Shown here piece by piece: positions 13,527-48,360 of a stretch of DNA of 64,000 nucleotides (its first letter is position 1; each line of letters starts with the position of its first letter). The notes beneath the pieces were generated by a model. It worked only from the letters and a program-made list of their open reading frames with translations. It had not been told where the DNA came from and searched no databases. Where the stretch lies: assembly GCA_964487295.1 (NCBI GenBank), contig CAZAQL010000001.1:13091-77090 (forward strand), read 5' to 3'. A program made the position numbers and the translations under genes. This DNA comes from an uncultured bacterium (lineage in GTDB: Bacteria > Joyebacterota > Joyebacteria > Joyebacterales > Joyebacteraceae).

Positions 13527-15921
13527 ACTGAACTACCGGATTCGTACAGACACCCTTCGGACAGCGCTTGTCGCGACCGTCGCGCTGGTCCTGGCGCTCG
13601 GGGCGTCCGAGGCGGACGCACGCTGGCGTGCGACCGCCGACTCCCTCTACGCGGTGGCCGAGCTCCATTACCAGGGGTCTGACTTCGTCACCGCGGCGCG
13701 TCTCTATGGAGACATCACGGTCCTCCTCGACGAGCAGGAGGAGGCCGGGCTCGGATCGTACTTCGAGAAGCTCGGCGCCCGGGCCGCCTTCCTCAAGGCG
13801 CGGGCGTTCGAACGGGCGGGAGACTGGGAGCAGGCGGAGAAGGCATACGCCTCGGCGCTCCCCCTGATGCGGCCCATCGGCGACGCCGTCAACTTCCGCA
13901 TGGCCGTCTGCCGGCTCGAGCAGGACGACCTCGAGGGCGCGACATCGCTCCTGCGCGCGATCGTCGAGGACGGCGAGGAGACCTCGTTCGACGAACGGGC
14001 GGTCGAGGCGCTCGGCGACGCGCACCGCCGCTTCTCGGAGTGGGACCTGGCCATCCAGTGGTATCGCCTGCTGCTGGCAAGGGCGCCATCCTACGACGAG
14101 CAGGCGCGAATCCACACCAGCATCGGGATGACGCACGAGGCTCGCGGCGACCGCGAGACCGCGATGCGCAGCTACGCCAGGGTCGTTGACGAGTTCCCCC
14201 GCTCGCGGCACGCGCACGATGCGATGAAGGAGGCCAGGAAGCTCTCTCGCTCATTCACCGATCGCTACCACCAGGGTCTTGTCCTCTACAACCGGAGGCT
14301 CTACGCCGACGCCGCCGAGTTCTTCGAGCACTACATCAGAAACGACGACGATGCGACATGGCGGCTCGAGGCTACCTACTACCTCGGACGCGCGAACCAG
14401 CGGCTCGGACGATACGATGCCGCCGCGAAGCACTACGCGGCCGCGATCGCTATCGGCGAGGGCGACGGGGGCGGAGACGGTACGGCGACGCCCGACAGCG
14501 AGGAGTACCATCTCGCCTGGCAGCGCCTCGCCTACGCGCGGCGCGTGCTGGGAGACGCCCAGGCCTGCCTGTGCACGTACGACGACTACGTGGCGAGGCA
14601 CCCGTCCGCCGACCACGCCGCAGACGTGCTCTGGGAGAAGGCGCGCTTCCTCGAGGACGAGAAGCGATGGGACGAGGCCGCGGAGGTCTTCGCCCTGCTC
14701 GCGGAGCGCTATCCGCATACGGAGAGGGCCGGTGACGCGCGATTCCGACGTGGGCTCGTGCTCTACAAGAACGGCGACCGCGAGGCCGCCGAGGCGGCGT
14801 TCACGCGCGACGCGTCCGTCGCGCGCGGGGAGGACCTCGCCCGCGCCGCCTACTGGCTCGGGAAGACCCGCGAGGCGCTCGGCCATCGGCGCCAGCCGCT
14901 CGTCGACTACCGGCGGGCCCGCGAGAGCGCGCCGGACTCGTACTACGGAAGACGGGCGTCGGAGAGCCTCGTGCGACTCGGGGTCGTGGATCCGGCGCCG
15001 GAGCGGGACCCTTCCACGGCCGCGCTCCGCAGGGCGCGCGTTCGCCCGGCCTGGGCGAACGGACCGGGCCGTGACTACGGCGCGTGGCTCGCCACGTGGG
15101 CCGAGCGCACCTACGTCCCGATCGAGTACATCGCCGTCCGGGAGCGGCTCATGGCGGACCGGTGGTTCGTCAGGGCCGACCATCTGCGCGCCGTCCACAT
15201 GGACGAGAACGCGGAGGAGGAGTTCTCACGGCTGGAAGAGAGCACGGCGTCGGATCCCACGATGCTCTCCATGCTCGTGGACTACTACGAGCGTTCGGGG
15301 CTCAACCGCCGCGGCATCCGCCTCGCCGAGCGCATCCTGCGCATGTCTCCCGTCGAGAACGCGAGTGAGGCGCCGGTGTATCTCGCCGAGCGCATCTTCC
15401 CACGGCATTTCGAGGACGTCGTCGAGCCCGAGTGCTTCGAGCGCGGGGTCGACGCGAACCTCTACTACGGGCTGATGCGGCAGGAGAGCGTCTTCGAGTC
15501 CGACGCGGTCTCGTGGGTGGGGGCGCGAGGGCTCTCGCAGATCATGCCCGCGACAGGCCGGTGGATCGCACGTCGTATCGATCACGGGCGGTTCCGGCTG
15601 GATCACCTCATGGACCCCTCGACGAACATCCGCTTCGGCGCGTACTACCTCGCCGAGCAGCTCGCTGAGTTCCAGGGCGATCCCCTCAGGGCACTCGCGG
15701 CCTACAACGGGGGACCGCGCAACGTCCCGCGGTGGTGGGGATACGGTGGGTGCGACGACGTTGACGTGTTCGTGGAGGACATCGGATACGCCGAGACCTC
15801 GGACTACGTGCGTCGCGTCTACGCCTACTGGCGTCTGTACGAGGAGATCTACGGGCGTTCTCCGGCGCCGGCGGCCGCAACCCCGTCATTCCGACCGGCG
15901 TCCGCCGCTTCGTCATCCTGA
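13438..15921 (+). CDS. TPR-repeat protein with C-terminal SLT-family lytic transglycosylase domain (secreted)
   Basis: SLT domain GLMRQESVFESDAVSWVGARGLSQIMPATG..IRFGAYYLAEQL..AYNGGP. Signal-like TALVATVALVLALGASEADA. The only ATG/GTG/TTG upstream of the signal peptide is ATG 13438, which overlaps ptsI by 89 nt, so the start is uncertain. Confidence 0.7.
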   Translation: MPRLKPSPPGRSAPRRRPRSPWNSASREHELNYRIRTDTLRTALVATVALVLALGASEADARWRATADSLYAVAELHYQGSDFVTAARLYGDITVLLDEQEEAGLGSYFEKLGARAAFLKARAFERAGDWEQAEKAYASALPLMRPIGDAVNFRMAVCRLEQDDLEGATSLLRAIVEDGEETSFDERAVEALGDAHRRFSEWDLAIQWYRLLLARAPSYDEQARIHTSIGMTHEARGDRETAMRSYARVVDEFPRSRHAHDAMKEARKLSRSFTDRYHQGLVLYNRRLYADAAEFFEHYIRNDDDATWRLEATYYLGRANQRLGRYDAAAKHYAAAIAIGEGDGGGDGTATPDSEEYHLAWQRLAYARRVLGDAQACLCTYDDYVARHPSADHAADVLWEKARFLEDEKRWDEAAEVFALLAERYPHTERAGDARFRRGLVLYKNGDREAAEAAFTRDASVARGEDLARAAYWLGKTREALGHRRQPLVDYRRARESAPDSYYGRRASESLVRLGVVDPAPERDPSTAALRRARVRPAWANGPGRDYGAWLATWAERTYVPIEYIAVRERLMADRWFVRADHLRAVHMDENAEEEFSRLEESTASDPTMLSMLVDYYERSGLNRRGIRLAERILRMSPVENASEAPVYLAERIFPRHFEDVVEPECFERGVDANLYYGLMRQESVFESDAVSWVGARGLSQIMPATGRWIARRIDHGRFRLDHLMDPSTNIRFGAYYLAEQLAEFQGDPLRALAAYNGGPRNVPRWWGYGGCDDVDVFVEDIGYAETSDYVRRVYAYWRLYEEIYGRSPAPAAATPSFRPASAASSS

Positions 15922-16493
15922 CCGGCGTCCGCTACCCTGTCGTCCTGACCGGCGTCCGCCACCCCATCGTCCTGACCGGCGTCCGCCACCCCATCGTCCT
16001 GACCGGCGTCCGCCGGGGATGTGACCGTTCGATCCGCCCAATCCTCCACTTCGAGGATCACGTCAGCGTCGTTTTTCGTCTGCGTCGCCAGCACGTAGGC
16101 CCAGTTCGCGGCCACCGCGACGAGCACGACGGCCCAGGCGACGAGACGCTCCCGTCGCGAGAGCGTCACGCGCAACACGGCGCCGCGGGCGAGCCTGGCG
16201 ACGCCCAGCACAGCGGCCGCGGGGATCACGACGAGGATGATCAGCGCATCGAGCGGGTTGGTCCTCAGAGCGAGCCCTGGGTGGCCCCTCAGTACGGCGC
16301 CGGTGCCTCGCAGAAATCCACACGTGGGACAGGGAAGACCTGTCAGTCTGCGAAAGAGGCAGATGACGGGACCGTCCCAGTGCGCGGTAGAGAGCGCGGC
16401 GAAGAGCCCGAACGCCAGGATGAGCAGGGCCGCCGCGACCGCGAGTCGGGGTGGCCGCGGTGCGCCGTTAATGCGTTCGAGTCGGATCCTCAC
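15849..16493 (-). CDS. DUF2752-like membrane protein (CPTCG motif) with repetitive acidic C-terminal tail
   Basis: GLPCPTCGFLRGTGAVLRG followed by TM helices. GTG start. The tail ADAGQDDGV x4 is encoded by the 27-bp tandem repeat. The 3' end overlaps the convergent SLT gene by ~70 nt. Confidence 0.6.
   Translation of the reverse strand: MRIRLERINGAPRPPRLAVAAALLILAFGLFAALSTAHWDGPVICLFRRLTGLPCPTCGFLRGTGAVLRGHPGLALRTNPLDALIILVVIPAAAVLGVARLARGAVLRVTLSRRERLVAWAVVLVAVAANWAYVLATQTKNDADVILEVEDWADRTVTSPADAGQDDGVADAGQDDGVADAGQDDRVADAGQDDEAADAGRNDGVAAAGAGERP
15917..16018. repeat. 27-bp tandem repeat x ~4 (CCTGACCGGCGTCCGCCACCCCATCGT)
   Basis: Direct tandem copies seen at 15917-15943, 15944-15970, 15971-15997 and a partial copy at 15998-16018. 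The array spans the stop of the SLT gene. On the minus strand it encodes ADAGQDDGV x4. Confidence 0.85.
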
Positions 16494-25219: not shown

Positions 25220-25249
25220 GAGGAGGCTGTCGCGCGCGGCAGCCTCCTC
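25220..25249 (+). terminator. hairpin (10-bp perfect stem GAGGAGGCTG/CAGCCTCCTC, 10-nt loop) after 24648..25169
   Basis: Seen directly in the sequence. No U tract follows; it is immediately followed by the 53-bp tandem repeats. Confidence 0.4.
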
Positions 25250-25375
25250 GCTTATCCGGGCTCCGTCCGGCGGGGTTGCCGGGGAAAGGCGGAGCCGCCG
25301 TCGCTTATCCGGGTTCAGTCCGGCGAGGTTGCCGGGCAGAGGCGGAGCCGCCCCCGCTTATCCGGGCTCAGTTCA
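25250..25375. repeat. 53-bp tandem repeat x 2.4
   Basis: GCTTATCCGGGCTCCGTCCGGCGGGGTTGCCGGGGAAAGGCGGAGCCGCCGTC at 25250-25302. A near-identical copy at 25303-25355. A partial third copy from 25356. Confidence 0.85.
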
Positions 25376-28759: not shown

Positions 28760-28920
28760 CGCCGGTGACGCCGCCGGTGCAAGTGCGGTGACGCCGCCGG
28801 TGCGAGTGCGTTGAGACCGGCTGTGGGAGTACGGTGAAACCGCCGGTGCAAGTGCGGTGACGCCGCCGGCGCGAGTGCGGTGAGACCGGCTGTGGCAGTG
28901 CGGTGACGCCGCCGGCGCGA
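28760..28920. repeat. ~23-bp tandem array x 7 with two alternating unit types (GTGCGGTGACGCCGCCGGYGCRA / GTGCGKTGAGACCGGCTGTGGSA)
   Basis: Units at 28783, 28806, 28829, 28852, 28875, 28898 plus a partial at 28760. Lies between the divergent GT-B gene and the 29013 gene. Confidence 0.85.
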
Positions 28921-29012
28921 GGACGTTGGTGCGGGCCCGCTGTTGAGTCGGGCGCAGCGTAGGTGTAGACTGCGTGTGTCCTTCCACGGAAACGCGAGCG
29001 ACGGAGGTGCGC

Positions 29013-33390: not shown

Positions 33391-33459
33391 CCTGCCTCCT
33401 GGCGGCCATATCGGCTGCAAAGCCTGCCCACCAGCGCATCGCCGCCGGGGCGGCGCCGG

Positions 33460-33514
33460 ACCATCGCCGGGCCATCGCCGGGCCATCGTCGGGCCATCGC
33501 CGGGCCATCGTCGG
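33460..33514. repeat. 11-bp tandem repeat x 5 (GCCATCGYCGG)
   Basis: Five contiguous copies immediately upstream of the M14 gene promoter. Confidence 0.85.
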
Positions 33515-33535
33515 GCCGCGCTGAGGGGTCCCTCA

Positions 33536-36360: not shown

Positions 36361-36574
36361 GCACGTGATATGGTCAATGTGATCCGGATGTCAAGAGCGT
36401 GCAGGCCGCAACGCGCGCCCGGAGGCTGGGACGAGGAGCCGTCCCCGGCCCCGTTCGACTCCCGACATGCCCGCGCCGTGGGCCTTCCCGGAGCAGTTGC
36501 TGGAACACCCCTTGCATCACCATGTCCCTGGATGCTGTGTCCACAACCGGGGACCGAGTGACGGAGGGGAGTCG

Positions 36575-38902
36575 ATGCCGACTGCGATGATCTCAGGACC
36601 GAGGACCGCGTACCTCGTCGCGCTCGTCGCGCTCGTGTGCGTGTCCTGTTCGAGCACGACCGGGCCATCCGAGGTGGATCCGCCCGAGGGGGCGATCCCA
36701 ACGAGGACCGTCGCCGGGGAGATCGCGCTTCCCGAGGGCGCGACCCTCGATCCGGCTGCGCTCTCCGTCGTGTCGCTCGCAGATGCGGCGGCCGTCGGAG
36801 GCGATGGGTCGTTCTCCCTGTCCATCCCCGACACGGATGTCTCGCAGACGCTCGCGGTCGTCGACGCAGGGGGCGAGATGGTCCTCATGGGCGTCGTATC
36901 ACGCTCGGCGTCCTCCGGCATCGTCGTCGACGCCGGGTCGACGGCGACCGCGCTGCTTCGCATGAACCCTTTCATGACGATGTTCTCGGAGTCGAACCGG
37001 GCCGTGATGGTCGAGCGGGCCGAGATCAAACCGGGCTGGACGACGCTCGTGAGGATGGTCGAGGATGCGCTCTGCGGACCCGACGGGCGTCTGCGCGGCC
37101 CGGCTCTCTCGGACGCCTCGCAGCAGTCGTCCGAGCTCGTCATCGATGCGTTGAACGACGAGCCGCCGCAGCCCTCGACGCTCACGGACCCATGGCTCGA
37201 GGACGTCGAGGGGGACAGCGTCTCCTGGGTGAACCCGGACCCGGTCTGCTACGCGGCCGTCTTCCGCTCGCTGACCTCGGCCGACTCGCTTGTCGTGCCG
37301 GTCTCGGTGGAGCGGACGAGGATCCGCGTGACGCCGGGCTGGCCTCCGTCCGTTCACGTCAGCGGAAGCACACGCACGCACGTCGACATTGGTGACGGCA
37401 CGTATCGCACCCGTCTTGTCGATGCCTCCTTCCGCACGTTCGACTCGTCGAGTCCGGACGGCGTCGCCACGGCGCGCAATGCCGGGCGCGCGGTGACGGA
37501 GCTCATTGCGCTCGTCTCGGGCGCCGTCGTCGAGCGCGAGACGTTCGATCTGGACATGGCCCGCCGGGGCGCGTCGGAGCTCGGCGGCGCCGTGAGCGCC
37601 CGCGACCCGTATCGCCTGATCCGTTCGCTCGCATCGCTGATGGCGGACGGAAGCGATGAGGTGGCGCAGTGGATCTGGGACGGCCCGAATCCCTCGTGCT
37701 CCGACTTCGTGAGCGCACTCTGCCCCGTGCTCGCTGAGGTCACGTTCGCCACCGGCATCATGGCGGGCGGGGAGTCGCGTGTTCCGTTCTTCGACCGGCT
37801 CGTCACGTCCGACCCACGCGTTGAGCTCACCATCAGCCAGCTCGATGGGGTCATGACCGAGACCGGCTCCAGCGAGCCGCCCTCGGCCGCCTTCACCGTC
37901 AGTCACTCCTACGCGGCGCCGGGGCAGAGCGTGACGTTCGACGCCTCGGCCGTTGCCGACCCCGACGATCCCACCGAGACGCTGGCGGTCCGCTGGGACT
38001 GGGAGAACGATGGGGAGTGGGACACGGGTTGGTCGACCACGAAGACCGCGACGCACGCGTACTCCACCGCCGGAGCGCGTGAGGTCGCCATGCAGGTCAG
38101 GGACCCCCGCCTGCTCAACGACAGCGCCGTGCACACGGTCAACGTCGGCGGGAGCGAGGAGACGGCGATCCACGTTGTGATCCTCAGGGACGTGGTCCCG
38201 TGGGCGGACGAGATCCCCGCCGTGCTCGACCAGATGCTCGAGGTGATGGGGTTCGAGGCGGGAAGCGGACCCGGGGAGTACGAGGTCGCGTCCGCGGCTT
38301 CGCTTCCGGACATCGCGCTCGTTCCCGGTGAGGACCTTCTGATCGTCCAGAACGATCAGCCGCAGTCGTTCTACAACGACTACGCCGCGAGCCAGGTTCG
38401 GGTCCAGCGGTTCGTCGAGGAAGGCGGCACCGTGTTCTGGGAAGCGTGCGACCGCGGCTGGCAGGGCGGATCGATCGAGTCCGCGGGGATCGTGCTGCCG
38501 GGCAACGTGACGCTCTCGGAGTACGAGACCTGGTACAACTACGTCGCGCTGCCGGGCGCTCCGCTCGTCGAGGGGCTCCCCGATCTGCTCTACGGGCAGT
38601 ACGCGAGCCACGAGGCTCTTGAGTCGCTTCCGGACGGGGCCGTCGTCTACGTGACGGACGACGCCGGCGGGGCGACGCTCGCCGAGTACGGCGTGGGAGA
38701 CGGGTGGGTGCTCATCAGCACGCAGCCGCTCGAATGGAACTTCTATCACAACTGGTCCGGTGGTCACGTCATGCCTCACGTCGTGTGCCACGTTCTCGGG
38801 CTGCCGCTGACGCACGACTTCGGCGACATCGTCAAGCCGGAGCGCCGCGGCGCCCCTTCGGATTCCGGCGGAGGTCTGGGTCTGACCAGCGGGATGCACT
38901 AG
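36575..38902 (+). CDS. large secreted lipoprotein-like protein with a PKD domain
   Basis: GGAGGGGAG RBS before ATG 36575. Signal peptide TAYLVALVALVCVSCSS. PKD-like segment FTVSHSYAAPGQSVTFDASAVADPDDPTETLAVRWDWENDGEWD..HAYSTAGAREVAMQVRD. Confidence 0.6.
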   Translation: MPTAMISGPRTAYLVALVALVCVSCSSTTGPSEVDPPEGAIPTRTVAGEIALPEGATLDPAALSVVSLADAAAVGGDGSFSLSIPDTDVSQTLAVVDAGGEMVLMGVVSRSASSGIVVDAGSTATALLRMNPFMTMFSESNRAVMVERAEIKPGWTTLVRMVEDALCGPDGRLRGPALSDASQQSSELVIDALNDEPPQPSTLTDPWLEDVEGDSVSWVNPDPVCYAAVFRSLTSADSLVVPVSVERTRIRVTPGWPPSVHVSGSTRTHVDIGDGTYRTRLVDASFRTFDSSSPDGVATARNAGRAVTELIALVSGAVVERETFDLDMARRGASELGGAVSARDPYRLIRSLASLMADGSDEVAQWIWDGPNPSCSDFVSALCPVLAEVTFATGIMAGGESRVPFFDRLVTSDPRVELTISQLDGVMTETGSSEPPSAAFTVSHSYAAPGQSVTFDASAVADPDDPTETLAVRWDWENDGEWDTGWSTTKTATHAYSTAGAREVAMQVRDPRLLNDSAVHTVNVGGSEETAIHVVILRDVVPWADEIPAVLDQMLEVMGFEAGSGPGEYEVASAASLPDIALVPGEDLLIVQNDQPQSFYNDYAASQVRVQRFVEEGGTVFWEACDRGWQGGSIESAGIVLPGNVTLSEYETWYNYVALPGAPLVEGLPDLLYGQYASHEALESLPDGAVVYVTDDAGGATLAEYGVGDGWVLISTQPLEWNFYHNWSGGHVMPHVVCHVLGLPLTHDFGDIVKPERRGAPSDSGGGLGLTSGMH

Positions 38903-38985
38903 CCTGGACGGCGATTCCACTCCTTTGGCACGCCGCGCTGTGTCCCCTGGTTGGCCCGCTCCGCCGCTTCTCAGGCGCCGCTCCT

Positions 38986-39119
38986 CCGGAGCCATCCGGG
39001 GCGGGCGGCGTCTTGTCGCATTCGCGGCGAGCCCGTCAGAGCGGTCGGTGCCTCGTCGCATTCCCGGCGAACCCGTCTGGGCGGCTGGCACCTCGATGTG
39101 CCCACCCGGAGCCATCCGG
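38986..39119. repeat. composite repeat: two identical 14-bp palindromes (CCGGAGCCATCCGG) flanking a 40-bp direct repeat pair
   Basis: Palindromes at 38986-38999 and 39106-39119. Direct repeats GTCGCATTCGCGGCGAGCCCGTCAGAGCGGTCGGTGCCTC (39014-39053) and GTCGCATTCCCGGCGAACCCGTCTGGGCGGCTGGCACCTC (39055-39094). Confidence 0.8.
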
Positions 39120-39368
39120 ATCGAGCGTCGTTCCGTCTCTTCCCGCGGAATGACTGTCCCTCGGAAAGTTCTTGCGTCACCATTCAATTTTCGTTAGGAT
39201 ACTCATGAAGGCCCAAGCCGTGGTCGATTGTGGCTGAATCGAGTGTCAGTCGGGTACGATCACACGCGTCCTCACGGAGGATTCGAGAGCCCCCCCCGGT
39301 AGCGAACGCCGGAGGTCGGGGGCTGCCCCCCTCAGGATTCCGCGGCTTGCCGCTCCGTGAGGGTCGCA

Positions 39369-39386
39369 GGCTCCGATGCGGGAGCC
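39369..39386 (+). promoter_or_regulatory. palindrome GGCTCC-N6-GGAGCC immediately upstream of the TetR gene RBS (candidate operator)
   Basis: Perfect 6-bp inverted repeat, 17 nt before ATG 39403. TetR repressors typically bind palindromes overlapping their own promoter. Confidence 0.35.
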
Positions 39387-39402
39387 GGAGAAGGAGTCAT
39401 CC

Positions 39403-40008
39403 ATGGCACGGAAGAGAGTCGGGAACAAGCGCGAGAAGATCATCAACGCGGCGGCGAAGTTCTTCGGCGAGAAGGGCTACCACAACACGACGACCTCCGA
39501 GATCGCGGAGGCCGCCGGCGTGGCCGCCGGGACCATCTACATCTACTTCAACAGCAAGGAAGAGCTCATCGTCGCTGTCTTCGAGGAGTTCCTCGGGCGC
39601 CACATGGAGCGTCTCAGGGTGGGCGTCGAGTCCGTCGATGGTCCGATCGCGAGGATCCGCCGGCTCATGACGCTCGGACTCGAGCTCATGGAGAGCAACC
39701 CCGAGAGCGCGAGGATCTTCCTCTCGCAGCTCCGTCAGAGTACGACGATGATCAAGACGGTCGCCAAGCGCAGCAGCAGAGCCTACAAGGACATCATCGA
39801 GGCGGTGCTGACCGAGGGGATGACGAAGGGTGTCTTCCGTCCGATGGACACGGAGCACGTCGCCAGCATGCTCTTCGGCGCATACCAGATGACCGTGCTG
39901 GACTGGGTGGCGCGCGACTGCTCGTACTCACTCACGGCCAAATCGAAGGAGCTCGCTGATTTCGTGCTCATCGGTCTGGCCTGCGAGCTGCCGAAGGAGG
40001 ATTCGTAG
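39403..40008 (+). CDS. TetR/AcrR family transcriptional regulator
   Basis: HTH KREKIINAAAKFFGEKGYHNTTTSEIAEAAGVAAGTIYIYFNSKEEL. AAGGAG 7 nt upstream. Confidence 0.85.
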   Translation: MARKRVGNKREKIINAAAKFFGEKGYHNTTTSEIAEAAGVAAGTIYIYFNSKEELIVAVFEEFLGRHMERLRVGVESVDGPIARIRRLMTLGLELMESNPESARIFLSQLRQSTTMIKTVAKRSSRAYKDIIEAVLTEGMTKGVFRPMDTEHVASMLFGAYQMTVLDWVARDCSYSLTAKSKELADFVLIGLACELPKEDS

Positions 40009-40158
40009 GAACGAAGGCTCCCGGATGACGGGAGTCGCGGTGGTAACTGAAGTACTTCGGTTCGCCGTCCTGGGGAGTTGTCCGGATGGCGGATGGGCGG
40101 ATGCGGAGAAAGGCGCGGACATTCTCCGAACGGACGGCGACGCATGTGAGGTGATACC

Positions 40159-41670
40159 ATGCAGCCGTCACAGAGTCATCAGGACACGATCAAGGGGCAC
40201 CTGCTCCGCAAGCTGGGCGCCTGGGGAAGCAGGCGATCCGCGGACGACGTCAGGAAGCTCGTAAGCTGGTCGGCGAAGGGGCTTCCCGAAGGCGTCATAC
40301 GCGACCGGGTCGAGAGCTTCCGCAGGGCCCTGGACTCCTCGGCGGCGGCGAGCGAGCTCGTCGACGCGTTCTTCAACCTCGCACCGACCTGCCGCAGGCG
40401 CATCATCGAGAACCTGCTTGTCAACTGGGGCATTCTCGGCGGCCAGACCCGGTATCACATCATGGAGTCCGAGGGGTGGATGCCGCCGAACTTCGCGGTC
40501 ATAAGCCCCACCATGCGATGCAACCTCCGCTGCAGGGGGTGCTACGCCTTCGAGTACACGCGGGACGGAGAGCTCACGACCGAGGAGTTCGACGACGTCA
40601 TATCGCAGTGCAAGGCGCTCGGCATCCACTTCTTCACGATCTCCGGCGGCGAGCCGTTCGTCCGTGAGGACCTCCTCGATCTCATCGACCGTCACAGCGA
40701 CTCCCTCTTCCAGATATACACGAACGGCACGCTCATCGACGATGCTGTGGCGGACCGCCTCCTCGAGCTCGGCAACGCGATGCCGGCCATCAGCGTCGAG
40801 GGGTACGAGGAGGAGACCGACGCCCGGCGCGGCCCCGGCACGCACGCCCGCCTGACGGCCGCGATGGAACGGCTCAGAGAGCGCGATCTGCTGTTCGGGA
40901 TCTCCGTCACGGCGACGCGTCACAATCAGGAGATCCTGACGAGTGAGTCGTTCTACGATTCGTACATCGAGCGCGGCGCGCTCTTCGCCTGGATCTTCCA
41001 GTACATCCCGATCGGCCGCGAGCCGGATGTCGATCTCATGCCGACGCCGAGTCAGAGGACGGAGCTCAGGAGGTTCGTCCACGGCCTGCACCGGACGAAG
41101 CCGATCTTCATCGGGGACTTCTGGAACGACGGCGCCTACACGGGCGGCTGCATGGCCGGCGGCCGGATCTACTTCCACGTCACGTCGAGCGGCGGAGTGG
41201 AGCCCTGCGTCTTCGCCCACTTCTCCGTCGGCAACGTGCGCGAGCGTCCGCTGCGCGAGATCCTTCAGTGCGATTTCTTCAAGGCGATTCGCTACGCGCA
41301 GCCTTACCGTGAGAACAGGAACCTCTACACGCCCTGTATGATCATCGACAACCCCGAGGTGCTCCGCGATCTCGTCGCGGAGTTCCGCGTCCCGCCAAGT
41401 CACGCCGGCGCGGAGACCATCGTGGCCGATCCCCGGATCGTCGCGCACCTGGACGAATACTCCCGGGGGATCAGACGACTGGCCGACCCCGACTGGGAGC
41501 GTGATCATTGGGATGATCCGGACTCCGAGTGGTACCGCGATGGCGGCTATCGCCTCGAACGCCAGTGGGCGGACGAGCGCGAGGCGCTTGTTCGATGGAA
41601 CGAGGAGCGGGGAAGGAAGAGGAGCCGACGGTCCGGTGTGGAGGCCGCAGCGGGGCACGTGATCCGGTAG
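40159..41670 (+). CDS. radical SAM enzyme with SPASM/twitch-like auxiliary Cys cluster, ~110-aa N-terminal extension
   Basis: CNLRCRGCY (CxxxCxxC) and GGEPF motifs. Downstream GGCMAGGRIYFHVTSSGGVEPC..C SPASM-like pattern. GAGGTGA RBS. Confidence 0.75.
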   Translation: MQPSQSHQDTIKGHLLRKLGAWGSRRSADDVRKLVSWSAKGLPEGVIRDRVESFRRALDSSAAASELVDAFFNLAPTCRRRIIENLLVNWGILGGQTRYHIMESEGWMPPNFAVISPTMRCNLRCRGCYAFEYTRDGELTTEEFDDVISQCKALGIHFFTISGGEPFVREDLLDLIDRHSDSLFQIYTNGTLIDDAVADRLLELGNAMPAISVEGYEEETDARRGPGTHARLTAAMERLRERDLLFGISVTATRHNQEILTSESFYDSYIERGALFAWIFQYIPIGREPDVDLMPTPSQRTELRRFVHGLHRTKPIFIGDFWNDGAYTGGCMAGGRIYFHVTSSGGVEPCVFAHFSVGNVRERPLREILQCDFFKAIRYAQPYRENRNLYTPCMIIDNPEVLRDLVAEFRVPPSHAGAETIVADPRIVAHLDEYSRGIRRLADPDWERDHWDDPDSEWYRDGGYRLERQWADEREALVRWNEERGRKRSRRSGVEAAAGHVIR

Positions 41671-47339: not shown

Positions 47340-48239
47340 GTGACGATGACCGTGACAGGCTATTCAAGGACGCGCCCGGCGCGCGCGGGAGAGGGTGCTG
47401 CCCGGAGCGGCCCGGCGCGCGAGGGAGACGGCGATACCCGGACCGGCCCGGCTCGCGCGGAAGCGAGCCGCACGGCGCCCCGGCGCCGGCGCCGCGCAGT
47501 GGGTGCGGCGGCGACTTGCGTCGGGCTCGCGGCGCTCGGTCTTGCGCTCCTCGGTCCGTTGCCGGTTCGAGCGGCGGAGCCTCTGTCGAGTGCGGAGCTC
47601 GCCGAGCTTCTGGAGCGCTACAATTCGTTCGTCAGACACGAGCGCTGTCTGATCGAGACGCTTCGCGTGGTCCAGACCATGGTGGATCCGCAGGAGGACG
47701 GCTCGGAGCGGACCGCGGTCGCCGAACTCACGTACATCGCCGGCAGCGGTATGGTCCGCGACGTACTCTCCTCGGACCTGGCCCATCCTGAGGGTGACTA
47801 CACGCTGGACAGCGTGATCGGACCCGAGCTTCCAGGCGGGGAGTACGACATCGAGCCCGTCGGCCGCGACACGGTGGACGGCGAGTCCGCGTTCCACCTG
47901 CGTGTGACCGCGCTCGACCGAGACAGGGATCACTTCGACGGCGAGATCTGGATATCCGAGATGGACGCCTCGCCCGTCCGCGTCCGGGGACGCGTCGCCG
48001 ACCCGCCCTTTCCCGTGGTCCTCATCACCTTCGACAAGCGGTTCGAGCGGCTCGCGCCGCAAGACGTTCGTGGCGAGGAGTGCCCGACCGCTCTCCGACT
48101 GCTCCGGCGTCACTCCGGCGAGGCCGAGGTGAACCTGCTGCTCGGGAGGAAGCGCGGGCAGCGTCACATCTTCTACGACGACTACGTCGTGAGGGTTCGA
48201 CCTCCGGACGGCGGGCCGACCGGAAGCACAGCCGATTGA
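47340..48239 (+). CDS. hypothetical secreted protein (Arg-rich TAT-like leader)
   Basis: GTG 47340 lies 8 nt after GGAGG; ATG 47346 is also in frame. Leader ..RRRRRAVGAAATCVGLAALGLALLGPLPVRAA. The mature part has ordinary globular composition. The antisense ORF 47364..48626 is R-rich junk. Confidence 0.5.
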   Translation: MTMTVTGYSRTRPARAGEGAARSGPAREGDGDTRTGPARAEASRTAPRRRRRAVGAAATCVGLAALGLALLGPLPVRAAEPLSSAELAELLERYNSFVRHERCLIETLRVVQTMVDPQEDGSERTAVAELTYIAGSGMVRDVLSSDLAHPEGDYTLDSVIGPELPGGEYDIEPVGRDTVDGESAFHLRVTALDRDRDHFDGEIWISEMDASPVRVRGRVADPPFPVVLITFDKRFERLAPQDVRGEECPTALRLLRRHSGEAEVNLLLGRKRGQRHIFYDDYVVRVRPPDGGPTGSTAD

Positions 48240-48263
48240 GGGATGTCCGCCGCCGGCGGGCAG

Positions 48264-48360
48264 GCATGGGGAGTCCGTCGCCGGCGGGTACGCATGGGGA
48301 GTCCGCCGCCGGCGGGTGCGCATGGCGAGTCCGCTGCCGGCGAGTTCGCATGCGGTCGGG
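48264..48360. repeat. 28-bp tandem repeat x ~3.5 (GCATGGGGAGTCCGCCGCCGGCGGGTGC)
   Basis: Units at 48264-48291, 48292-48319 and 48320-48347, a degenerate fourth copy, and a partial copy starting at the stop codon (48237) of the upstream gene. Confidence 0.85.

Follow-up and report, generated by a model that had tools for sequence, protein, structure and literature searches.

A lineage-specific tandem array resembling part of a terminator-type hairpin in the spacer upstream of a FadR-like TetR gene

FadR of Bacillus halodurans / B. subtilis (TetR family, YsiA), the nearest characterised homologue of the regulator considered here, recognises a 21-bp operator, GATGAATGAATACTCATTCAT (PMC5397183; PDB 5gp9, 5gpc). 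This FadR box is made up of four ATGA(A/G)T half-sites with offsets of 4 and 10 bp, and the B. halodurans protein contacts these AT-rich ATGA(A/G)T repeats (PMC5397183). The present analysis concerns the 500-nt spacer between the gene for a PKD-domain protein and the gene for a FadR-like TetR regulator in a stretch of 64,000 nucleotides from an uncultured bacterium (contig CAZAQL010000001.1 of assembly GCA_964487295.1), which is called the window and supplies all positions given below. An earlier description made from the letters alone, referred to here as the sequence-only reading, had picked out in this spacer a 134-bp repeat block, a weak promoter and a dyad. The comparison with orthologous spacers indicates that the block is a recent, lineage-specific tandem array that was duplicated from the adjacent terminator-like hairpin. 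The reading as a whole, in which this array is followed by a conserved promoter and by an RNA stem-loop before the Shine-Dalgarno sequence, with a separate conserved motif as the best operator candidate, is considered probable. The flagged features would then all be of known kinds, namely a slippage-type array, a terminator-type hairpin, a sigma-70-like promoter and a leader stem-loop.

Species-representative genomes were scanned for the locus, which gave 28 orthologous loci, and more were added through exact-protein look-ups and a metagenome scan. The close set consists of 10 distinct relatives with a TetR protein that is 88-90% identical and with the same upstream PKD gene wherever the contig extends that far, and these were aligned across the spacer. 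Comparison with three further, more distant sequence groups (TetR ~68-77% identical) relied on visual inspection and on a position matrix. Significance was assessed with dinucleotide shuffles of the 500-nt spacer (n = 500). The spacer of the close relatives is ~360 nt long, compared to 500 nt in the window, and the alignment suggests a conserved core of ~360 bp together with two recent lineage-specific expansions, the array and an insert of ~87 nt. Because a separately assembled Logan contig (L001) is identical to the window over the whole spacer, with its sole 2 mismatches at 38560 and 38563, a misassembly of the spacer is unlikely.

Both components of the repeat block were found as described. 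The 14-mer CCGGAGCCATCCGG is present as exact copies at 38986-38999 and 39106-39119, with no further exact copies in the 64 kb, and the 40-bp direct repeats, located at 39014-39053 and 39054-39093, share 32 of 40 positions. An exact 14-nt repeat was reached in 1 of the 500 shuffles and a lagged match of 32/40 in none of the 500. The identity of the 14-mers stands as reported, while their designation as inverted repeats was wrong: they are direct copies, merely 75% complementary when taken as inverted repeats, and the internal palindrome of each is only 4 bp (CCGG...CCGG). The distance between them is 120 nt, which is 3 x 40 and in register with the repeats. Tandem Repeats Finder reported a period of 40 and 2.4 copies for the block, and a repeat search recovered three units in register, starting at 38989, 39029 and 39109. 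The block is best laid out as a degenerate array of four 40-bp units in head-to-tail orientation and in register on the + strand (38989-39148), with unit starts at 38989, 39029, 39069 and 39109. In the 40-nt register the units read GAGCCATCCGGGGCGGGCGGCGTCTTGTCGCATTCGCGGC, GAGCCCGTCAGAGCGGTCGGTGCCTCGTCGCATTCCCGGC, GAACCCGTCTGGGCGGCTGGCACCTCGATGTGCCCACCCG and GAGCCATCCGGATCGAGCGTCGTTCCGTCTCTTCCCGCGG, and their pairwise identities are 30, 26, 23, 22, 20 and 16 of 40 (40-75%), compared to ~12 expected. The 40-bp repeats of the earlier description correspond to this four-unit array read 25 nt out of phase, and they represent the overlaps of units 1/2 and 2/3. Copy 1 of the 14-mer (38986-38999, + strand) forms the apical stem-loop of the neighbouring hairpin and the start of unit 1, and copy 2 (39106-39119, + strand) is the corresponding segment of unit 4 and sits where units 3 and 4 meet. 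By itself, copy 2 forms a 5-bp hairpin whose stability is not unusual.

The apparent source of the array is a long, GC-rich, terminator-like hairpin at 38973-39013 on the + strand, with the first 14-mer as its apex, that was identified from both folding and covariation. Its predicted stability of -34.8 kcal/mol (z = -4.9) was not reached by any of 200 shuffles. Across 10 sequences the hairpin has 17 pairs, 8 of which changed on both sides, and 94% of the cells are paired; the covariation score was reached by 0 of 500 shuffles, and sliding the partners against each other lowered the pairing to 35-54%. There are ~20 G-U cells, which fits an RNA of the + strand, the sense strand of the PKD gene. 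All four array units can be aligned to GAGCGGCGCCTC, the 3' arm of the orthologous hairpins in relatives, and each unit corresponds to a copy of the hairpin loop, the 3' arm and a tail of ~13 nt. The array is missing from 10 of the 10 distinct close orthologous spacers. The hairpin itself is predicted to be the terminator that ends the PKD transcript. It is similar to intrinsic terminators in its GC-rich stem of 17-20 bp directly downstream of a stop codon, in its location on the sense strand and in its compensatory changes across species. It differs from them in having no clear U-tract and in being preceded by an ultra-conserved block of 70 nt, which ordinary terminators lack.

In terms of mechanism, the array would have arisen by serial tandem duplication of the hairpin loop, 3' arm and ~13-nt tail, presumably through a slipped-strand or template-switch replication error. 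The array is similar to slippage-type minisatellite or variable-number tandem repeat (VNTR) arrays in that its head-to-tail, in-register units decay with age and were copied from adjacent unique sequence, in that its presence varies between close lineages, and in that unrelated arrays occur in other spacers of the window. In contrast to such arrays, it has just four units that are already divergent, units 1 and 4 keep an exact 14-mer, and no copy-number polymorphism was seen in the one population sampled, where L001 is identical. Other, unrelated tandem arrays lie in or beside intergenic spacers at 15868-16014, 25236-25372, 33443-33517 and 48240-48352, and further ones within predicted genes at 28763-28921 and 47374-47460; the periods are 27, 53, 11, 28, 23/69 and 36 nt. 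Since several unrelated arrays are present in the same window, local tandem duplication seems to be common, which suggests that this genome is prone to it. A close relative (L046, ~960-1110) has a different tandem repeat of ~40-50 nt (CGCCGGGGWACCACGCAGKACCCGG...) in the spacer between its TetR and radical-SAM genes.

The region downstream of the array was found to contain a conserved promoter block (39149-39200, + strand) that consists of an A-rich upstream part, a -35 element TTGCGT (39172-39177), a 17-nt spacer and a -10 element TAGGAT (39195-39200). The sequence-only reading had offered TTGCGT-N17-TAGGAT at 39172-39200 as a weak promoter candidate, and the comparison strengthens it, with both hexamers and ~50 nt around them nearly invariant in the 10 distinct relatives. 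The GC content falls to 47% at this block, the only AT-rich dip of the spacer. The distant groups have analogous sequences, CTTGC-N17/18-TAnnnT and CTTGC-N17/18-TA(A/G)(T/G)AT-like, preceded by an A-rich stretch. A scan for consensus promoters and terminators gave 0 sites, and conservation was used instead. Elsewhere in the window TTGC-N19/20-TAnnnT has 6 matches, of which 3 are at least partly intergenic (2 fully), too few for a consensus. From this pattern of conservation a sigma-70-like promoter is predicted at 39172-39200, with a transcription start site at ~39207.

The operator was sought in what the TetR upstream regions have in common. The only element shared by all four sequence groups (A-D) is a 20-nt motif, which in the window reads CTGAATCGAGTGTCAGTCGG (39234-39253, + strand) and has the consensus RTGAAYCGRGWRTCAGTCRG; one copy is present in the window. 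Group D, which was left out of the building of the matrix, scores 16.2-16.5 compared to a null maximum of 13.5. In terms of position, the motif directly follows the -10 element in group C, lies ~30 nt after it in groups A and B, and lies over the Shine-Dalgarno sequence and the ATG in group D. A metagenome scan with a 19-nt version of the motif returned 89 stretches, 4 of them beside TetR orthologues and all of these at the same relative position. The scan revealed no additional sites of a regulon; the other matches have unrelated flanks, some of them encoding the sigma-factor sequence ESRVSQ, and are about as numerous as expected by chance according to our own estimate. In one group of orthologues (loci L016, L020, L021 and L027) the motif lies at -18 from the TetR ATG and coincides with the Shine-Dalgarno sequence and the start codon (RTGAAGCGAGGTTCAGTC-ATG); here the -10 element is followed by a palindrome of its own, GTGACAGTTCAC-N5-GTGAAGTCAC.

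The regulator that would bind this motif is FadR-like. Among solved structures, B. halodurans FadR is its closest relative (5gp9/5gpc, E = 1.6e-34), and the recognition helices of the two proteins are almost identical (AGVA-GTIY-YF). This helix is invariant in 41 orthologous proteins, and the N-terminal sequence MARKRVGNK is conserved as well. FadR is the best-scoring NCBIfam model, although the score of 137 bits is below the cutoff of 200, and a further difference from FadR is that no fatty-acid degradation genes were seen beside the gene. The motif begins with a FadR-like half-site, RTGAAY, and its TCAG-TCAG takes the place of the TCAT-TCAT of the FadR box. One of its half-sites is good, namely CTGAAT (GTGAAT in relatives), and TCAGTC stands in the register of TCATTC. 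If the TetR protein autoregulates like its relatives, the segment 39234-39253 is the best candidate for its FadR-like operator, and the chance that it serves as such is put at roughly even.

The motif may instead work at the RNA level, either as a remnant or mimic of a translation-initiation site or as a leader element bound by a protein or the ribosome, with the operator located elsewhere, for example at ATGAGT...ATTCAT around the -35 element. We regard this as possible but rather unlikely. It would account for the lack of a clear palindrome, for the location of the motif within the predicted transcript in groups A, B and D at distances from the -10 element that range from ~0 to ~110 nt, and for its overlap with the Shine-Dalgarno sequence and ATG in group D. 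It is also consistent with the FadR-type half-sites ATGAGT and ATTCAT that are kept in the promoter block of close relatives. However, the 5' portion of the group C motif is situated between the -10 element and the point where transcription is expected to start, which indicates conservation at the DNA level, and no conserved complementary partner was seen. The two half-sites of the promoter block are 26 nt apart, unlike those of the FadR box, and both are degenerate in the window.

Immediately upstream of the terminator-like hairpin, and directly after the PKD stop codon, lies the ultra-conserved non-coding block (38903-38972, + strand), which includes a CU-rich CUCCUUU stretch. At 19 loci the first 26 nt of the block are found without any change, even in groups whose TetR protein is only ~70% identical, and the block is present as a single copy in the window with no Rfam match. 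In the consensus fold of the block the stop codon is enclosed, the CUCCUUU stretch, which is anti-Shine-Dalgarno-like, is in a loop, and two pairs covary. The block and the hairpin lie within 38873-39013 of the window, and they were also seen at loci L006-L010, L012, L013, L015, L017, L019, L024, L029, L047, L051 and L067. Read-through of the PKD stop codon and a small open reading frame (ORF) in the block were considered and rejected on account of a 1-nt indel between groups. With Rfam 15 there was no match in the whole window at the gathering threshold, and at E <= 10 the segment 38850-39450 gave a noise match alone (mir-1200, 20.7 compared to 71 bits). Block and hairpin (38903-39013) could be an undescribed small RNA derived from the 3' untranslated region (3'-UTR) and conserved across the sampled Eisenbacteria-type loci, an interpretation that we hold to be improbable. 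If it were correct, the CU-rich anti-Shine-Dalgarno-like loop might target neighbouring or distant mRNAs, and the array copies of the 3' arm and the twin hairpins around the TetR gene described below would alter termination or processing in this lineage.

The second feature of the spacer that had been given a regulatory role is the dyad GGCTCC-N6-GGAGCC, which is present at 39369-39386 as reported, 3 nt ahead of the Shine-Dalgarno sequence GAAGGAG (39390-39396) and the ATG at 39403. Perfect 6-bp dyads with spacers of 3-10 nt were observed 2 times in the spacer, where the shuffle mean is 1.8, and at least 2 were found in 245 of the 500 shuffles; the dyad alone is therefore not beyond chance. 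On the + strand it can form a 6-bp stem-loop (-12.9 kcal/mol, z = -2.4) that reaches with its 3' arm to 3 nt from GAAGGAG and abuts the G-rich run GGAGAAGGAG. A stem of 5-7 bp with a 3' arm that ends where the G-rich run of the Shine-Dalgarno sequence begins is present in each of the 10 distinct close relatives, and the arms recorded in this comparison are GGCTCC/GGAGCC, GATCCC/GGGATC, GATCCT/GGGATC, GGTCC/GGACC, GATTCC/GGGATC and GGTCCCT/GGGGACC, with compensating changes and several G-U pairs. The dyad was not present in the orthologues of the distant groups. It is more likely to be a small RNA hairpin abutting the Shine-Dalgarno sequence than a family-wide TetR operator, and a stem-loop in this position would insulate the region of translation initiation or stabilise it.

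The hairpin of the dyad has a near-copy, GGCTCCCGGATGACGGGAGTC, at 40016-40036 on the + strand, 8 nt past the TetR stop codon and upstream of the radical-SAM gene. A pattern designed after both copies had been seen occurs in only these two places in the 64 kb, compared to 0.04 expected. Relatives carry unrelated hairpins at the position after the TetR stop codon, and in this lineage similar hairpins stand on both sides of the TetR reading frame. The near-copy is regarded as another local duplication, although a binding site shared by both copies retains a small chance.

The sequence-only reading had taken the dyad as an autoregulatory TetR operator, and on that basis the near-copy would be a second operator that controls the radical-SAM gene. 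Autoregulation through palindromes is common among TetR-family repressors, the dyad is a perfect palindrome over the translation-initiation region, and its single like sequence elsewhere in the 64 kb lies 8 nt after the TetR stop codon and ~120 nt upstream of the radical-SAM start. Nevertheless, this proposal is held to be quite improbable. Perfect dyads of this size occur in the spacer at chance frequency. The arms drift among close orthologues, with G-T/G-U positions, and the dyad is missing in distant ones, yet the recognition helix is invariant. The nearest characterised homologue recognises AT-rich half-sites, ATGA(A/G)T, by means of a nearly identical helix, and a GC-rich, drifting palindrome is thus a poor operator candidate. 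Furthermore, the copies are 18 and 21 nt long, lengths that agree better with a hairpin than with the fixed footprint of a dimer, the dyad sits ~170 nt downstream of the predicted promoter with its conserved -10 element, and the radical-SAM gene is missing at most orthologous loci.

The dyad is preceded by the second lineage-specific expansion of the spacer, an insertion of ~87 nt in the 5' leader (39279-39368, + strand) that is absent in all 10 distinct close relatives. With a start site at ~39207, the leader would be ~195 nt long in the window compared to ~105 nt in relatives. Within the insert the flanking ancestral sequence CCTCACGGAGGATTC recurs twice, once in direct orientation (CCTCAGGATTC) and once as a perfect inverted copy (CTCCGTGAGG), so local duplication is again indicated, and a 10-bp perfect complement joins 39270-39279 and 39353-39362. 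The insert folds into a long hairpin of -48.4 kcal/mol, but with a z of only -1.2, and single-sequence folds of the leader and of the 87-nt insert were not unusually stable (z = -1.2 to -1.3). A second local event of duplication or inversion would thus have placed ~87 nt into the leader.

The 40-bp units or the 14-mers might form an iteron-like array of binding sites for a lineage-specific regulator or nucleoid protein at the TetR promoter, as the earlier suggestion of an iterated regulator array implied. The regular 40-bp phase immediately upstream of the promoter, the small hairpin or partial palindrome in each unit, and the exact 14-mer that was kept in units 1 and 4 while the remainder diverged would all fit such a function. 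We nonetheless consider it very unlikely. The block is absent from every orthologous spacer, and the 10 of 10 distinct close spacers that lack it retain the same promoter and the same regulator. The units are just 40-75% identical to one another, their sequence is accounted for by descent from the neighbouring hairpin arm, of which the block is a lineage-specific copy, and the best matrix score of the TetR-linked motif inside the array is 5.2, which is background, compared to 28.0 at the real site. Most likely the array has no dedicated regulatory role besides lengthening the spacer between terminator and promoter.

The remaining proposal, that the 134-bp block is a miniature mobile element of the MITE (miniature inverted-repeat transposable element) or REP (repetitive extragenic palindromic) type that was inserted between terminator and promoter, is held to be extremely unlikely: the block resembles such elements in being a short, GC-rich, hairpin-containing intergenic segment with identical, partly self-complementary 14-mers at both ends and with presence/absence variation, being missing from orthologous spacers, but its end sequences are direct rather than inverted copies, its flanks (GCTCCT and ATCGAG) show no target-site duplication, its left end coincides with the apex of the ancestral hairpin from which the array was apparently copied, and it is single-copy in the window. 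The check for mobility that had been proposed, a search for the block elsewhere in the genome, was carried out within the window, by BLAST of the spacer, and gave only chance matches of 11-12 nt besides the 14-mers. The repeat core GTCGCATTCSCGGCGARCCCGTC had 0 matches in the metagenome collection, a weak test, as the collection did not return the source genome either.

Several points weigh against the account preferred here, in which the array derives from the hairpin and the motif at 39234-39253 is the operator candidate. Units 1 and 4 share the exact 14-mer and match at only about half of the other positions. The retention of the 14-mer despite this divergence is not predicted by simple decay, and therefore gene conversion or selection on the small stem-loop is suggested. 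The hairpin is without a clear U-tract, its tail being CUUGUCGCAUUC, and the terminator scan found 0 sites; group B relatives do carry a U-rich tract, CAUUUUGUU, after the hairpin. With regard to the promoter, TTGCGT matches the consensus at 3/6 positions and TAGGAT at 4/6, below the threshold of the scan, and this consensus is of the E. coli type and may not be that of this phylum. The motif is not clearly palindromic, and its position relative to promoter and start codon varies between the groups. Its similarity to the B. halodurans FadR box amounts to 12/21 identities, which is chance level and was reached by 26% of shuffles. The region before the Shine-Dalgarno sequence is not unusually structured across the wider family (mean z = -0.5), and the near-copy of the dyad after the TetR stop codon could be explained by a common binding site. 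Finally, terminator, promoter, leader hairpin and operator are all inferred from sequence.

The genes around the spacer provide the context for these elements. The PKD-domain protein gene (36467-38902, + strand) is followed on the same strand by the FadR-like TetR gene (39390-40008 with its Shine-Dalgarno sequence; ATG at 39403 and stop codon at 40006-40008), in which the Pfam domains TetR_N and TetR_C_4 were identified. The radical-SAM/SPASM gene (40159-41670, + strand) comes next, for which no NCBIfam model reached its cutoff, and a gene for an M50/CBS protease follows on the opposite strand. Homologues of the window TetR carry the source-given name Candidatus Eisenbacteria. The mechanical list of ORFs gives an ATG at 39376 as the TetR start, and the real start was placed at 39403 because the N-terminus MARKRVGNK is conserved and the Shine-Dalgarno sequence lies at 39390-39396. 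The ORFs that span the array are not conserved and are typical high-GC artefacts.

The order PKD-TetR-M50 is a conserved arrangement that was found at ~33 orthologous loci. The radical-SAM/SPASM gene is present in only ~10 of these ~33 loci (among loci L002-L069), with a patchy distribution across the groups, and L018 retains a remnant only. The TetR and radical-SAM genes had been described as a pair, which is accurate in the sense that they are adjacent in the window, but given its presence in only ~10 of the loci the pairing is optional, and the radical-SAM gene is best seen as an occasional passenger of the locus.

In summary, the conserved core of the locus would be ordered as follows: the 3'-UTR block, the long terminator-type hairpin that ends the PKD transcript, a variable spacer, the sigma-70-like promoter and a transcribed leader. 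Within the leader, the 20-nt motif at 39234-39253 would be followed by the small hairpin abutting the Shine-Dalgarno sequence and by the TetR start codon. The importance of the findings is small. They illustrate that a tidy IR-DR-DR-IR pattern of inverted (IR) and direct (DR) repeats can come from serial duplication of half of a terminator hairpin, and that the comparison of orthologous spacers sorts lineage noise from real control elements. For the locus itself they offer a usable promoter model and a specific 20-nt stretch as the candidate operator of a FadR-like regulator that is highly conserved. The 3'-UTR element after the PKD gene is deeply conserved and may merit a study of its own.

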